A DNA stretch of 64,000 bases, from IMG/VR virus record IMGVR_UViG_3300032159_000001. One strand, given 5' to 3'. The notes beneath the pieces were generated by a model. That model did no database searches. It was given only the letters and a program-made list of their open reading frames with translations, and was not told the DNA's origin. Made by a program: the position numbers and the translations under genes. This stretch comes from a virus. This document shows, one piece after another, positions 46,919 to 57,328 of the stretch; position 1 is the first letter of the stretch, and each line of letters starts with the position of its first letter.

Positions 46919-49474
46919 ATGTCAGCCGAAGGCACTGGGCCGGCGAGTAATATTTTCGCCGATAACTGTGATCGATACTGGGACCGCGGTCTCCCAGTCA
47001 TGCCGCTCAAGCGTTACACCTCAAACGGCGGGCCTGAGGGGAAGCCGACCGGTAAAGAGCCCGTCGTCCTGAACTGGCAGTCGCTCCAGGCCCGAATGCC
47101 GAACGAGGCCGAGCGGACGAGCTGGCGCGTCTTCCATCGCAACGGCAACATCGGCCTGCCGCTCGGGCCACAGTCCGGTCTCGTGGCGATCGACATCGAT
47201 ACCGACGACCCGAAGATCATCGGCATCCTGAACAAGGTGCTGCCACCATCGCCGTGGGAGCGCGTCGGTCAGAAGGGGATGGTGCGGATCTACCGCTACG
47301 ACGGCCAGCCGATCATCCGCATCAAGTACCGGGACGAGGCAGGCAAGCTGCAATCCCTCGTCGAGATGCTCGGCGCCGGCTCCCAGATCGTGCTACCGCC
47401 CTCCGTTCACCCCAAGACAGGGCGGCCCTACTGGGCGAACAAGGACCTCGTCGATTGCCTCGACGACGTCCGCTCCCTCCCGCACAACATCGAGCAGATC
47501 CTGCGGGACGCTCTCAGCCAAGCCGGGATGAGCCTCGGGACGTCGACGTTCGGCTCCGTCACCGACTACGTGTCGACCGGCAACCGCGACAACCACCTCG
47601 TCGGGCTCGCCGGCCTGTTCGCGCGCAACGTCGTGAAGGGCGAGAAGACCCTGAAGGAGGCGCTGACGGAAATCGAGGTCGCCGCGGCGACCTTCATCGA
47701 GCGCACCTACGGCGACAACATCGACCCCAAGAAGGGGCCGACGAAACTGATCGAGTTCCTGATCCGCGACGTGACGGGTCCGAAGGCCCACGTCCTGCCG
47801 AAGGGTTGGGATGAGGGTGTGACCGACGCGGAGCGTGTGGCTTGGGGTCTCGACGCCTTCACGAAGGACAATGAGACCTGGGACTGCGGCCAGATCCTCG
47901 ACTACTTCAACGCTCACATCGAGAAAGCCGGCGTCAAGGACAACACCGAACAGTTCACCAGCGTGGTCAAGCTCGTCCTCAACCGCGTCGCCGCCAGCAC
48001 CTCTCTCGATCCGATCGAAGAGGACCATATCGTCAACTACGTCGCCCAGGTCTCGGGCAAGAGGTTCAGCGCTGCCTCGGTGCGCCGGCAGCTCGCCAGT
48101 CTACGCGCCGGCCCGATCACGGGCGCGAACCACGCCGAGATCGCCGAGGCGGTCATCAAGGATCTCGAAGAGCTGGGCGGTCCCATCCGCTTCCACAACG
48201 ACACGCTCTGGCAGTACGAGGGCTCATCCTGGAAGAAGATGGACGAGGCGAAGGTCCTCCAGACAATCATCCGGGACTACGGCAAGACCCACAAGGCGGC
48301 TGGCCGCGCAACGGACCACCAGGGCATCCTCCGTACGATCCGGGGCCTGGCGGTCGGCGAGCTGCAAGAGGTGGCCGTCTCCGGCATCAACTTCGTCAAC
48401 GGCTTCCTGACCGAGGATCTGGAGCTGAAGCCACACGATCCCGCCTACGGGATGACCTACACGCTTCCCTACCCCTATCTGCCCGAGTCCGCCGGCAAGG
48501 CCACCCGCTGGCAGCAGATGCTCGTCGACTACTGGGGCAGCGACCCAGACTTCTCCGAGAAGGTGACGGCCCTCGGCGAGGTGATGGCGCTGACGCTCTT
48601 CGCCAAGATGACCGAGGTGCAGCTGGCCGTCTGCCTCTACGGCGTCGGGCACAGCGGCAAAAGCCGCATCATGGAAATCGTCCAGGCATTGATGCCGGCC
48701 GAGGCCCAGACCTCGCTCCCGCCGACGCTGTGGGGCGACAAGTTCGGGCCGGCGCAGCTCGTCGGCAAGCTGCTCAACTTCGCGGGCGAGCTGTCGGAGA
48801 CCCAGCTCATCGACAGCGCCAAGTTCAAGCAGATCGTCGAGGGTGCGGTCATCGAGGCCCAGGAGAAGAACCGGCCGATGTTCAATTTCCGCCCCCGGGC
48901 GGCGCACTGGTTCGCGAGCAACCACACCCCCAAGTCCAAGGACAGCTCGGATGGCTTCACCCGGCGGTGGCTGTTCCTCTGCTTCACAAAGGCGTTCCCC
49001 GAAGGCCCCCGAAAGATCCTCGAGTACCACAAGGTTGTCATCTCGGAGGAACGCGAGGCTATCGCCGCCTGGGCCGTTCAGCACATGGTTCGACTTCGAC
49101 ACGAAAACTTTAAGATCACGGACCCACCATCATCTATGGAACAGCGGGAGGCGCTTGAAAACGAGCTGAACAACGTCCGGGATTTTCTAGTCGGTCTCCG
49201 GGAACAGGGTCGGATGATCCTGGGGGCCGAGGCTCATCAGAACGTTTCCGACCTGCACAACTACACGCCATTGAGCACCCTTTTGACCGAATACAAGACC
49301 TATTGCCTCGGTCAGAGTGTCTCCCCTGCTGGATCGAAAACGCTCGAGAAGCGTATGGCGCACCTGCAGGGTCAATTCGGTTTCAGGAAGGACACGGTTA
49401 TTGGAGCTGCGGGCCTGCCGATCCCAGTATATCGCTTCCTCACACTTGTTCATCAAAAGAAGGCAGTTGCGTAA
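46919..49474 (+). CDS. Primase-polymerase / SF3 helicase (Prim-Pol plus D5/P4-type)
   Basis: NIGLPLG, VAIDIDTD, QIVLPPSVHP, GNRDN, INFVNG, Walker A GVGHSGKS, NFAGE, ASNH. Confidence 0.92.
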   Translation: MSAEGTGPASNIFADNCDRYWDRGLPVMPLKRYTSNGGPEGKPTGKEPVVLNWQSLQARMPNEAERTSWRVFHRNGNIGLPLGPQSGLVAIDIDTDDPKIIGILNKVLPPSPWERVGQKGMVRIYRYDGQPIIRIKYRDEAGKLQSLVEMLGAGSQIVLPPSVHPKTGRPYWANKDLVDCLDDVRSLPHNIEQILRDALSQAGMSLGTSTFGSVTDYVSTGNRDNHLVGLAGLFARNVVKGEKTLKEALTEIEVAAATFIERTYGDNIDPKKGPTKLIEFLIRDVTGPKAHVLPKGWDEGVTDAERVAWGLDAFTKDNETWDCGQILDYFNAHIEKAGVKDNTEQFTSVVKLVLNRVAASTSLDPIEEDHIVNYVAQVSGKRFSAASVRRQLASLRAGPITGANHAEIAEAVIKDLEELGGPIRFHNDTLWQYEGSSWKKMDEAKVLQTIIRDYGKTHKAAGRATDHQGILRTIRGLAVGELQEVAVSGINFVNGFLTEDLELKPHDPAYGMTYTLPYPYLPESAGKATRWQQMLVDYWGSDPDFSEKVTALGEVMALTLFAKMTEVQLAVCLYGVGHSGKSRIMEIVQALMPAEAQTSLPPTLWGDKFGPAQLVGKLLNFAGELSETQLIDSAKFKQIVEGAVIEAQEKNRPMFNFRPRAAHWFASNHTPKSKDSSDGFTRRWLFLCFTKAFPEGPRKILEYHKVVISEEREAIAAWAVQHMVRLRHENFKITDPPSSMEQREALENELNNVRDFLVGLREQGRMILGAEAHQNVSDLHNYTPLSTLLTEYKTYCLGQSVSPAGSKTLEKRMAHLQGQFGFRKDTVIGAAGLPIPVYRFLTLVHQKKAVA

Positions 49475-50147: not shown

Positions 50148-50166
50148 GATCGAAGGGGGTTTCCAC

Positions 50167-50571
50167 ATGGACACCACACCGATTACACCGCACCTCGCGG
50201 AAGAGCCCGGGTTCGAGAAGCGCATGGCGGCGAAGAAGCCGAAGCCCCCGGCGCTGAGCCCAGAGATGACGCGGTTCGTCGCGTCCCTGCCGGTATTCCC
50301 AGACGGAGCTGCGGTACCGCTCTCGCCCTACAAGGAGACCAAGCTTTTCGACGAGGCACAGGCCTACGCGGTCGGAGCGAAGGCCGCAGCCGCCATTCAA
50401 GTGCCGAAAGCCGGTGAGCTGCTCGACGTCCTCGGCGCCGAGTGGCGGGCCAAGCAGGATGCCCTGCTGGCGAAGTGCCGGATGGCTCTTGAAGCAGGGC
50501 AACGCGTTGTCCTGACAGTGAACGGCGCCGTGGTCGCCGTCTACGATCCCCACCAGAGGAGTGAACGATGA
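50167..50571 (+). CDS. Hypothetical protein
   Basis: GGGGG SD; coupled to the next gene. Confidence 0.65.
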   Translation: MDTTPITPHLAEEPGFEKRMAAKKPKPPALSPEMTRFVASLPVFPDGAAVPLSPYKETKLFDEAQAYAVGAKAAAAIQVPKAGELLDVLGAEWRAKQDALLAKCRMALEAGQRVVLTVNGAVVAVYDPHQRSER

Positions 50572-51299: not shown

Positions 51300-51324
51300 T
51301 TTCCGGTCGAAATCGAGTGAAATT

Positions 51325-51345
51325 GGCCCCGAAAGGGGCCTTTTT
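51325..51345 (+). terminator. Intrinsic terminator
   Basis: GGCCCC-GAAA-GGGGCC-TTTTT. Confidence 0.85.
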
Positions 51346-51474: not shown

Positions 51475-51717
51475 TCAGTCGACGAGGGTGCAAGTGCCGG
51501 GGCGGGCGCTGCGGTTGAGGGGCTTCAGGCCGCCCTCGCGATGCTCGACGGTGTCGATGAAGACGCTGTAGCCGCGCGTTCCGGGCGTGCCGGCCTGGCG
51601 AACGCCCGTGATCTCGGCGGTGACGTCGGCGGCACCCCGGCCGGGAGAGAAGCGCACCTTCTTGCCCACCGGGAACTCCTTCTCGAAGTCGGCGAGGGTC
51701 TTCTTGGGATTGGCCAT
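51475..51717 (-). CDS. Small basic beta-rich protein (SH3/KOW-like)
   Basis: AGGAG SD; FPVGKKVRF; divergent from parA. Confidence 0.7.
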   Translation of the reverse strand: MANPKKTLADFEKEFPVGKKVRFSPGRGAADVTAEITGVRQAGTPGTRGYSVFIDTVEHREGGLKPLNRSARPGTCTLVD

Positions 51718-51776: not shown

Positions 51777-51791
51777 GGTACGATATGTACC
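51777..51791. promoter_or_regulatory. Motif A (1 mismatch) in the divergent region before parA
   Basis: GGTACG-ATA-TGTACC. Confidence 0.7.
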
Positions 51792-51881
51792 AAGCGCAAG
51801 AGGCTCCATGTCGAAAATTTCGAGGAAAATCCCCTTGATCTTCACTTGGAAATCGAGTGAAGCTGGGCGCGGTCTCATGTG

Positions 51882-51908
51882 CTTTCCACGTGGAAAGCCG
51901 GTGGAAAG
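51882..51908. promoter_or_regulatory. Candidate centromere/operator of the par cassette
   Basis: Perfect palindrome CTTTCCACGTGGAAAG (51882-51897) plus a third GTGGAAAG 11 bp downstream, just before parA. Confidence 0.55.
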
Positions 51909-51916
51909 GACTTGAG

Positions 51917-52567
51917 ATGATCGTGCTCGTGGGAAACACGAAGGGTGGGGTCGGGAAGACCACGCTTGCTGTCCAGATGGCCATCGCTCGGGCTCGTGCG
52001 GGTCGACGCGTCTGGCTGGTCGACGGCGACAGCCAGGCGACGGCGCAGGCCGCGATCCAGATCCGCGCAGAGGCCGGGCTTGAGCCCGAGATCGTGTGCT
52101 CGCTCTACCCGGACGGGAAGATCCTCCGACAACAGGTCCGCCTTCAGAAGGACAACTACGACGACGTCATTCTGGATGTGGGTGGCCGGGACACACTGGC
52201 GCTCCGCGCAGGGCTGTCGCTGGCCGACGTGGCGCTCGTGCCGTTCGCACCGGAGAGCTTCGATCTCTGGGCGATGCAGAACATGGCCGACGTCGTGGAC
52301 GAGATCGGCGCAGAACGCGACGGCCTGGTCACCTACGCGGTCCTGAACAAGGCCGAGGCCCGGTCGGCCAGCGTCGACAACGCGGATGCTGCAGAGGCCG
52401 TGCAGGAGATCCCGACCTTCACCTACCTCGACCTGCCTCTGGTGAAGCGGAAGGCCTTCTCGTCGTCCTCGGGCGCCGGCATGGGCGTCGCCGAGCAATC
52501 GCCGGTCGACCCGAAGGCGATCGCCGAGCTGGATCGTCTCGTCGCCCGCGTCTTCGAGGAGGCTTGA
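51917..52567 (+). CDS. parA: ParA partition ATPase (short, type Ib)
   Basis: KGGVGKTT, VDGDSQ, ILDVGG, VP..P..FDLWA, VLNK; no N-terminal HTH. Confidence 0.93.
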   Translation: MIVLVGNTKGGVGKTTLAVQMAIARARAGRRVWLVDGDSQATAQAAIQIRAEAGLEPEIVCSLYPDGKILRQQVRLQKDNYDDVILDVGGRDTLALRAGLSLADVALVPFAPESFDLWAMQNMADVVDEIGAERDGLVTYAVLNKAEARSASVDNADAAEAVQEIPTFTYLDLPLVKRKAFSSSSGAGMGVAEQSPVDPKAIAELDRLVARVFEEA

Positions 52568-52568
52568 G

Positions 52569-52829
52569 ATGGCCATCACGCGCAAGCCCAAGCGGGAGAT
52601 GTCGGACGAGGCCTTCGAGCGGATCGCGGGTGGTGCGATCGACGGCACCACGAAGAAGCGCGAGCGCGGCAAGGGCTACGCGATGGGCCACAAGCGACAG
52701 ATCACGCACATGATCACGCCGGTACTGCTTGATCAGGTCGATGCCGAGGCCGAGCGGTGCGGGGAAGCGAGGGCGACCGTCATCAATCGCTTCATCCGCG
52801 AGGGTCTCGAGCGGAAGAAGGTCACTTGA
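52569..52829 (+). CDS. Ribbon-helix-helix partition partner (ParG-like)
   Basis: Flexible N-terminus; RQITHMITPVLLDQVDAEAERCGEARATVINRFI; directly after parA. Confidence 0.8.
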   Translation: MAITRKPKREMSDEAFERIAGGAIDGTTKKRERGKGYAMGHKRQITHMITPVLLDQVDAEAERCGEARATVINRFIREGLERKKVT

Positions 52830-56261: not shown

Positions 56262-56609
56262 ATGGCCGCGCCTCAGAGTACCGAGGACATCTTCGCCGGG
56301 ATGCTCGAGACGCTCGCCGAGCCAACGCGGTGGACGAAGCGTGCAGGCGCCCGCGACACCGAGGGCCAGCCCGTGCCTTCGTCCTCACACCACGCCGTCT
56401 GCTGGTGCCTGTTGGGCGCCCGCCAGCGAGAGCTGAGCAAGATCGAGGACCTCGCGCTGCTCGAGCGCCTGGACGAAGAGACCGACGAGCTGCTGCACCA
56501 AGCCTCAGGCGGCGCCTCACCCTCGGCGATCAACGACGACCCGGCCACGACGCACACCGACATCGTGGCCTTGGTCCAGCGGGCTCACCAAGCCGCGAGG
56601 AAGGCTTGA
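56262..56609 (+). CDS. Phage hypothetical protein (DUF6197-like)
   Basis: WTK.AGARD..G, AVCWCLLGA, IND..TTH; GGAGG SD. Confidence 0.7.
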   Translation: MAAPQSTEDIFAGMLETLAEPTRWTKRAGARDTEGQPVPSSSHHAVCWCLLGARQRELSKIEDLALLERLDEETDELLHQASGGASPSAINDDPATTHTDIVALVQRAHQAARKA

Positions 56610-57328
56610 CGATGCGTCCCGAAGAGCGGCCACACCTCGTGAACCATGTCTTTCAGGCGCTGTTCGTCGAGGATGTCAATGCGCCCGTCCAGCTGCTTGA
56701 TGAGGCCGTCGTTGACGAACGTCTGCAGGATCTCCGTGATCGACGGCCGCCGGATCGCCGTGCGGCTCGCCATCATTCGGTGCGTGACCGGCAGCGCGTC
56801 CGTCCCCGCGGCCGTGGCGCTGAGCAGCAGGTAGGCCGCGATCCGGCTGGGAACCGGGAGCTGCACCGAGGCCACCAGCCACTGCCAGCTCTCGGCCGCC
56901 TGAAGGTTCGCGTAGGCCTGCACGACGTGTCGGCTGGACTCGTGCTCGTCGAGGAACCTGCGCGCCGCCTGGGTGGAGCACCGCAAGGCGGCCCCGCCCA
57001 TATCGCATATGGCCCCGTAGGGCAGGGTGGCATCACCGAGCAACTGGGACACCCCGACGAGATCTCCCGATCCGAGCATGTTCAGGGTGACATTGGGCTG
57101 GGGCTTCCCGTTCGATTGCACCCCACCCGTGCTCGCGGTGATCGAGACGACGGCTTCGATCGGAGCGTAGACGAACTGTGTCCGCCGACCAGCCGAGAAC
57201 AGCTCCTGACCAGCCTTGAGGGACGCACGCTCGAAGAAGTCACCCCACTGGACGGTCTGCTTCATCAGTAGGTCGACGATAGTGTTCGACTTGCCGCCGA
57301 CCTTGAGAGTTTCACGTTGCTTGACCAT
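56585..57328 (-). CDS. Crp/Fnr family transcriptional regulator
   Basis: cNMP-binding beta-roll (GQELF, LGSGDLVG), RIAAYLL helix, HTH VTHRMMASRTAIRRPSITE, GRIDILD. Confidence 0.88.
   Translation of the reverse strand: MVKQRETLKVGGKSNTIVDLLMKQTVQWGDFFERASLKAGQELFSAGRRTQFVYAPIEAVVSITASTGGVQSNGKPQPNVTLNMLGSGDLVGVSQLLGDATLPYGAICDMGGAALRCSTQAARRFLDEHESSRHVVQAYANLQAAESWQWLVASVQLPVPSRIAAYLLLSATAAGTDALPVTHRMMASRTAIRRPSITEILQTFVNDGLIKQLDGRIDILDEQRLKDMVHEVWPLFGTHRQAFLAAW
56998..57012. promoter_or_regulatory. Motif B (inside the Crp/Fnr gene)
   Basis: CCATATC-G-CATATGG. Confidence 0.6.

Follow-up and report, generated by a model that had tools for sequence, protein, structure and literature searches.

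A type Ib-like partition cassette and an integrase in a temperate Methylobacterium siphophage

The par locus and its products

The locus studied here comprises parA, the gene of a small partner protein following it directly and an intergenic region with several repeats, beyond which a small gene is read divergently (Table 1). It lies in a 64,000-nucleotide stretch of viral DNA, hereafter the window, which corresponds to bases 381-64380, minus strand, of the IMG/VR virus record IMGVR_UViG_3300032159_000001 (84,125 bp). The window covers 76% of this record, and 24% lies outside.

Table 1. Genes and sequence elements of the par locus and of the phage genome (positions are those of the window unless stated otherwise).
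Feature	Position	Strand	Remarks
parA	51917..52567	+	ATG at 51917, stop codon at 52565-52567; small Walker-type partition ATPase of 216 aa, type Ib-like
Partner gene	52569..52829	+	86 aa, ParG-like adaptor; begins 1 nt past the parA stop codon
Candidate operator/centromere	51882..51908	.	perfect 16-bp palindrome CTTTCCACGTGGAAAG and third half-site GTGGAAAG
13-bp word GAAATCGAGTGAA, promoter-proximal copy	51849..51871	+	exact at 51849-51861; 23-nt repeat unit
13-bp word GAAATCGAGTGAA, distal copy	51309..51331	+	exact at 51309-51321; 540 bp upstream of the proximal copy
Motif A	51777..51791	.	GGTACGATATGTACC; palindrome family GGTACG-N3-CGTACC; between parA and the divergent 80-aa gene
Divergent 80-aa gene	51475..51717	-	adjoins parA throughout the phage lineage; not in homologous plasmid cassettes
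Primase-helicase (Prim-Pol / D5_N / P4-family)	46919..49474	+	851 aa; 2.4 kb upstream of par
Crp/Fnr-like regulator	56585-57328		candidate regulator inside the window
HTH_3 (Xre-type) protein	L002:8121-8717	-	199 aa; outside the window
254-aa gene	L002:7388-8149	+	adjoins the HTH_3 gene in opposite orientation; outside the window
Tyrosine integrase, P4-type	end of the 84,125-bp record		421 aa, intact; the record's last three bases form its start codon
tRNA-His	opposite end of the 84,125-bp record from the integrase		

ParA starts with MIVLVGNTKGGVGKTT, that is, a deviant Walker A motif including the signature lysine stands right at the N-terminus (residues 6-16), and an N-terminal DNA-binding domain is absent. 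This is the composition of type Ib ATPases, which are small (~190-230 aa), carry the deviant Walker A KGGxxK[ST] and have no N-terminal DNA-binding domain. Pfam families AAA_31 (1.4e-18) and CbiA (5e-15) were matched, as well as PHROG 164 “ParA-like partition protein” (1.2e-38) and, over the full length, NCBIfam NF041546 “ParA family partition ATPase” (1.9e-36), the latter with 125.6 bits, which is below the curated cut-off of 180. Among solved structures, full-length matches were registered only with TP228 ParA (5u1g) and ParF (4dzz), with E-values of about 4e-11 to 6e-11. Residues of the Walker A, A' and B motifs are unchanged in 14 relatives (K9, K14, D36, D38 and D87 are invariant). The dN/dS ratio of parA was 0.28-0.49 for all pairs compared, pairs of integrated members included, and values of 0.3-0.5 correspond to constraint of moderate degree only.

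The partner has no match in Pfam. It is composed of a conserved basic N-terminal tail (MAITRKPK..DEAFERI), a disordered linker and a C-terminal ribbon-helix-helix (RHH) domain at residues of about 44-85. A profile built from 26 homologs matched CopG (1b01/2cpg) across the whole RHH with an E-value of 8.4e-5, and in the AF2 model the N-terminal half is disordered, while helices 51-64 and 68-85 have pLDDT of about 90. Foldseek with this model returned nothing significant (best E 1.6), its best-ranked rows being RHH proteins. A small centromere-binding partner encoded directly downstream of parA, often an RHH protein with a flexible tail, is usual for type Ib systems, and the 86-aa gene has this place and layout; its basic N-terminal tail probably stimulates ParA. 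Thus, the short ParA with an RHH partner reported by the first-pass annotation of this DNA was confirmed by domain matches and by the CopG profile.

Prediction of the ParA-partner complex lent weak support to their interaction, with an ipSAE of 0.54 against 0.01 for the best control; contacts agreed by at least 68% between the runs and the partner had pLDDT of at least 65. Of 80 solved complexes, 58 pass the mark set for ipSAE, as do 2 of 110 mismatched pairs, and the range up to 0.60 contains only 7 of the passing solved complexes together with both passing mismatches. Since the structure of the TP228 ParA-ParB complex is already solved, the pass may mirror likeness to that complex.

Full-length homologs of the partner (35-46% identity) are encoded directly 3' of ParA at more than 30 loci, and those on deposited plasmids carry CopG/RHH annotation. 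The ParA family is very large. Among the matches listed, ParA homologs of 216-219 aa with ~55-61% identity were found on named plasmids from many Proteobacteria and on small contigs, the coverage of which was often high; Methylobacterium prophages were absent among the ParA matches listed in the genome-contig scan, which were plasmid-type ParAs. A search of viral contigs with ParA alone gave no relatives, and the sole blastn match of the par region in phages was the partition gene of a Dolichospermum phage (66%). Since homologous ParA and partner genes stand side by side on small plasmids, this pair is a plasmid-type partition cassette. Its proposed assignment to type Ib is right in the form type Ib-like. 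The nearest relatives of both proteins are partition pairs of small proteobacterial plasmids. Pairs from Komagataeibacter, Acetobacter, Xanthomonas, Aeromonas, Burkholderia and others are true homologs with the same gene order and spacing, but they reside on 3-40 kb plasmids and have neither the 80-aa neighbour nor motif A; no experimental study of this small-plasmid subfamily was found in the literature. ParF-ParG (TP228) and TP228 ParA-ParB resemble the cassette in having a small ParA (about 200-220 aa) without N-terminal HTH, a partner with a flexible basic N-terminal tail and C-terminal RHH, and repeats upstream of parA that are able to act both as operator and as centromere. However, sequence similarity to them is remote (E about 1e-11 for ParA; the partner matches CopG only, 8e-5), the array found here is short, with three strong half-sites, a second site lies 540 bp upstream, a conserved divergent 80-aa gene is present, and the element itself is a phage that also integrates.

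Repeats upstream of parA

The palindrome that had been noticed at 51882-51897, with a direct copy at 51901, is present precisely there. It is formed by half-sites CTTTCCAC and GTGGAAAG, and the third half-site (51901-51908) overlaps the ribosome-binding site of parA. The half-site 8-mer occurs five times per 64 kb against 1.13 expected, three of the five copies being gathered inside 27 bp, and the 84-kb genome contains the 16-mer palindrome only once. With its three strong half-sites, the candidate centromere is of small size. The 13-bp word, also noticed before at about 51309 and 51849, was found exactly at both positions and nowhere else. Its distal copy sits in an AT-rich intergenic region beside a terminator hairpin (51325-51340), and a match of this quality was reached by none of 300 shuffles of the upstream intergenic region. 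The divergent 80-aa gene stands between the two repeat sites; ESM Atlas gave only SH3/Tudor-like leads for its product. A sigma-70 scan revealed no consensus promoter. By eye, TTGAY is conserved ~75 nt upstream of the parA ATG, which is a visual lead only. A weak copy of the palindrome, GTTTCCACATGGACAC, with four mismatches, overlaps the start codon of a 134-aa gene (50159-50174) and may be due to chance.

Motif A, reported previously at 51777, is present there as one of about 18 sites of the GGTACG-N3-CGTACC family, which are spread over positions 1139-60632 of the window and give 26 strand-hits against 0.43 expected. This family is a candidate phage-wide operator/promoter element, possibly for the Crp-like regulator.

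Additional information came from comparison with related phages. All five of them (the window, L096, L013, L009 and L094) keep motif A, at a distance of ~125-140 bp upstream of the ATG of parA. The window and L096 have the same RHH sequence and the same palindrome, while in L013, L009 and L094 the RHH domains differ from that of the window and the repeats proximal to the start codon differ too, i.e. among the five phages promoter repeats change together with the partner RHH domain. Promoter repeats recur 510-610 bp upstream, past the divergent small gene, in the window, L009 and L013 (0/300 shuffles in each case), and this two-site layout is built in the relatives from other repeat sequences (16/18 in L009; 22/24 in L013, with 82-nt units x3). 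Co-variation of the repeats with RHH and the two-site layout, recurring in three of four relatives, are what one can expect if the partner binds the repeats. Comparison with four related phages lifts motif A, the operator and the two-site repeats above chance. The adaptor RHH probably binds the palindrome/half-site array in the parA promoter, and the distal site 540 bp upstream is perhaps also bound by it.

Integration into the host tRNA-His

The phage nature of the genome, claimed by the first-pass annotation, was supported by genuine virion genes for TerL, portal and major head protein inside the window; the collinear record pMaq22A_3p (see below) has annotated homologs of tail, tape-measure and lysis genes. 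Virion genes together with the par cassette and the P4-family primase provide the combination of a full phage gene set with plasmid maintenance genes that is expected for phage-plasmids. The same annotation saw no integrase, Rep or CI. For the integrase this holds within the window only. Its own caveat was that an integrase or a repressor could lie outside, and the 421-aa tyrosine integrase is located there, as is the HTH_3 protein, a candidate regulator. As to Rep and CI, candidates do exist. The 851-aa P4-family primase-helicase, whose counterpart in pMaq22A_3p is annotated as “phage/plasmid primase, P4 family”, is a plausible candidate for the replication initiator, and the HTH_3 gene with its 254-aa neighbour, as well as the Crp-like gene, are candidates for a lysogeny switch.

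The integrase matches PF00589 (Phage_integrase, 4e-20), Arm-DNA-bind_3 (2e-14) and PRK09692 (2e-25), and its catalytic R, K, HxxR, H and Y are all present (motifs RRNE, K, HDLRR, NH and VY). The record contains no second copy of the tRNA-His 3' end, and the second att site came from longer contigs. In four of them (JGI 3300030501, 144,669 bp; ENA ERZ27241735; ENA ERZ27241731; JGI 3300010395), stemming from at least two independent samples, host genes precede an identical integrase. These genes code for HAD hydrolase, glycosyltransferase, SLT, response regulator, YkuD, phasin and sensor kinase, and two of their products, HAD hydrolase and SLT-domain transglycosylase, are exact matches of Methylobacterium proteins. 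Across 11.3 kb, three of these contigs do not differ from the record, the fourth being a variant from another sample. In three of the four, the 3' end of tRNA-His recurs as a perfect copy of 53 bp, located 160 bp upstream of the start codon of the integrase. The attL-attR unit measures 84,090 bp. Thus, direct att repeats with host genes beyond them are available, along with an attP junction in the free form (see the next section), and the phage inserts into the 3' end of the host tRNA-His between attL and attR.

The copy number proposed for checking was estimated in run X13, where the phage contig of 84,097 bp is bounded by the core (84,090 - 53 + 60). Its depth was 15.9, with 16.9 and 16.3 for the host flanks and 37.7 for the core. 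Such nearly equal depths imply one phage copy per host copy (1:1), as simple integration predicts. Logan contigs are built with k = 31, which is shorter than the 53-bp core, and cannot distinguish attL+attR from attB+attP; the graph of X13 by itself is insufficient, and the proof of integration is provided by the depth ratio and by the k141/JGI contigs only.

On this basis the phage is a temperate Methylobacterium siphophage with a unit of 84,090 bp. Host-flank proteins of the phage gave exact Methylobacterium matches resembling M. jeotgali. All sampled 31-mers of the phage are present in plant, groundwater, bat, oil-field, soil and marine-sediment metagenomes (runs X1-X14, many studies), and this spread over unrelated metagenomes suggests either a ubiquitous strain or a reagent contaminant.

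Free circular form

A different picture was observed in run X12. The phage is represented there by an 84,120-bp contig (84,090 + 30), which is a circle closed at k = 31 and passes from the right end of the phage through the core to the integrase side, i.e. spans the attP junction. It is the only closed circle of the phage, and in the run that gave it no contig covers the host flank upstream of the tRNA. Such a circle fits virion or free phage DNA equally well as a plasmid state. In run X7 the phage depth was 82, with 59-60 for junction contigs, and the host tRNA 5' flank again had no contig; as records can be lost to a filter, run X7 is not used as evidence. Taken together, the integrated contigs with their depths and the X12 circle indicate that the phage, besides integrating, exists as free DNA that is circular or assembles as a circle. 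The suggested check of circularity and host flanks therefore gave a double answer: a circle in X12, but Methylobacterium flanks in four contigs. Persistence as an episome, which had been proposed for this phage, does not follow from these data, because with host DNA the integrated state alone is documented and the X12 circle is devoid of a host flank. Any episomal carrier state of this phage in a growing host is putative.

A plasmid sibling and other relatives

Homologous plasmids, which the first-pass annotation advised to look for, do exist. A terminase search in plasmids led to pMaq22A_3p of Methylobacterium aquaticum 22A (NZ_AP014707.1; 85,702 bp, circular), with TerL identity of 87%. In a gene-by-gene comparison pMaq22A-3 is a complete phage genome collinear with the phage, about 60 of 83 genes being matched, including ParA (67% identity), the partner, the P4-family primase, the Crp-like regulator, PolA, nrdJ and the major head protein (83%); its phage genes also comprise terminase, portal, tape measure and lysis. 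Six-frame translation of pMaq22A-3 contains no PF00589 matches, neither a tRNA nor the att core was found in it, and the position of the integrase is taken by a MarR-like gene. According to the genome paper, which is silent on phage, pMaq22A-3 is one of five circular plasmids closed by PCR (PMC4392154). Among the paper texts searched, none names it a phage or mentions AP014707. Extrachromosomal upkeep is thus documented for the relative, while the phage itself was seen with host DNA only in the integrated state. Accordingly, the idea of a phage-plasmid without integrase fails for this genome, which integrates, but is valid for its sibling.

Integrated relatives were also found. Provirus records G002 and G004 have an integrase at the same position, 42-46% identical to that of the phage; these records end about 1.3 kb before the par locus and are therefore uninformative on par. 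An intact par cassette is present in provirus G003 and in Leaf361 (620-kb contig). The prophage of Methylobacterium sp. Leaf361 (L129; LMPY01000023.1:523440-544222) is truncated just past the Crp-like gene, and its parA and partner genes are intact; beyond the break there are genes for a UvrD-like helicase and DUF2290, a transposase gene and leuA. The par cassette is a trait of the whole phage lineage, which has at least one integrase-less member living as a circular plasmid (pMaq22A-3) and at least one member that holds both maintenance systems, int and par. Distant near-complete relatives with TerL identity of 45-49% (G012-G014, G019, G020 and G022, which are L112-L114, L119, L120 and L122) possess an integrase or else a ParA-like gene, never both, and two of the carriers of ParA-like genes have direct terminal repeats.

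Possible roles of the cassette

The explanation that we prefer, with moderate confidence, is that an integrating phage retains a working type Ib partition module as a reserve means of maintaining its circle when this is not integrated. The par operon encodes a small ParA ATPase and, translationally coupled to it, an adaptor, the RHH of which would occupy the palindrome/half-site array and perhaps also the distal site, while its basic tail would stimulate ParA. When not integrated, the circular genome would be replicated by its own P4-family primase-helicase and PolA, and par would segregate this circle following infection or an excision that does not lead to lysis, or in cells lacking an available attB. 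In pMaq22A-3 par would presumably be the main inheritance device. Retention of par under constraint beside an integrase argues for a role at the time when the genome is circular and non-integrated. Against this reading speak the 1:1 copy ratio in X13, the distant relatives with one system or the other, the small candidate centromere, the failure to find a sigma-70 consensus promoter and the merely moderate dN/dS of parA.

There is also some chance, which we consider modest, that the phage is a facultative two-mode temperate phage, able either to integrate into tRNA-His or to live as a low-copy plasmid by means of its own primase-helicase and par, and that the lineage toggles between keeping and losing the integrase with the rest unchanged. 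Satellite phage P4 establishes lysogeny by integration or persists as a plasmid, and its primase-helicase and integrase belong to the same broad families as those of the phage described here, but its backbone and host are unrelated. The literature also mentions recombinases by which phage-plasmids can change from one state to the other (PMC7969092).

Rather doubtful is the idea of an evolutionary leftover, according to which the phage-plasmid is a former or an alternating state of the lineage, and par has no role in this genome and has simply not decayed yet. The plasmid nature of the integrase-less sibling and the 1:1 copy ratio in X13 speak in its favour. So does the fact that distant relatives and mycobacteriophages show an integrase or par and not both (PMC7157519), which suggests that a single system suffices, and that integrated P1-like elements keep replication and partition genes (PMC10879196). 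However, both open reading frames are intact with catalytic residues kept, the operator palindrome is common to L096, and even the degraded Leaf361 prophage retains the cassette. Moreover, at least three integrated relatives with ParA differing by 27-41% (dN/dS 0.28-0.49) have an intact cassette, and such divergence is too large for a neutral relic to remain open. Another job for the pair, for instance transcription control of early genes by RHH, positioning of DNA in the lytic cycle or displacement of plasmids with the same par type by incompatibility, looks decidedly unlikely. The pair is arranged in every respect like a plasmid partition operon, and the integrase-less sibling, an 85.7-kb low-copy circle, needs exactly such a partition system. 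At the same time, RHH proteins are mainly repressors, the second repeat site flanks the divergent 80-aa gene, the weak palindrome at 50159 covers the start of the 134-aa gene, the phage-wide motif A shares the intergenic region with the par repeats, and small plasmids of related hosts commonly carry close homologs of the pair, all of which would be in line with such functions.

An obligate phage-plasmid that has no integrase and never integrates could be supposed from the window, where par is present and an integrase is absent, from the closed 84-kb circle of one run and from the relative deposited as a plasmid. Its probability is now close to negligible. The first-pass annotation itself had named an integrase with att sites in the remaining sequence as the observation that would refute it, and the integrase, tRNA-His and 53-bp repeats are there, joined in host-flanked contigs by Methylobacterium DNA, so this possibility is already refuted.

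Comparison with known systems and biological meaning

In cluster A mycobacteriophages some members integrate, while others form partitioned extrachromosomal prophages with parABS replacing the integration cassette (PMC7157519), i.e. both modes of lysogeny occur within one phage lineage, as they do here. However, in cluster A the cassettes swap at one collinear position and par consists of ParA/ParB/parS, whereas in our phage par and int are both present and occupy separate loci. P1-like phage-plasmids that turned into integrative prophages keep their replication and partition genes (Pfeifer and Rocha, PMC10879196) and, similarly to the phage studied, encode both functions while being integrated. 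Their backbone and host are unrelated, and the phage differs from them in that it has clean att sites and an integrase dedicated to a tRNA target.

One consequence is that a partition cassette in a partial phage genome is insufficient to call a phage-plasmid, because here the integrase and att sites were located in the 24% of the record beyond the window. The lineage is best read as living on the border of plasmid and integrated lysogeny. The question why integrative elements keep partition genes, and how the modes are switched, has been raised for P1-like elements (PMC10879196). In the Methylobacterium lineage near-collinear genomes exist both as a chromosomal prophage and as plasmid pMaq22A-3, and the presence of both forms within one lineage makes it a convenient natural system to find out for what reason partition genes are retained by integrating phages and how these pass from one lysogeny mode to the other.
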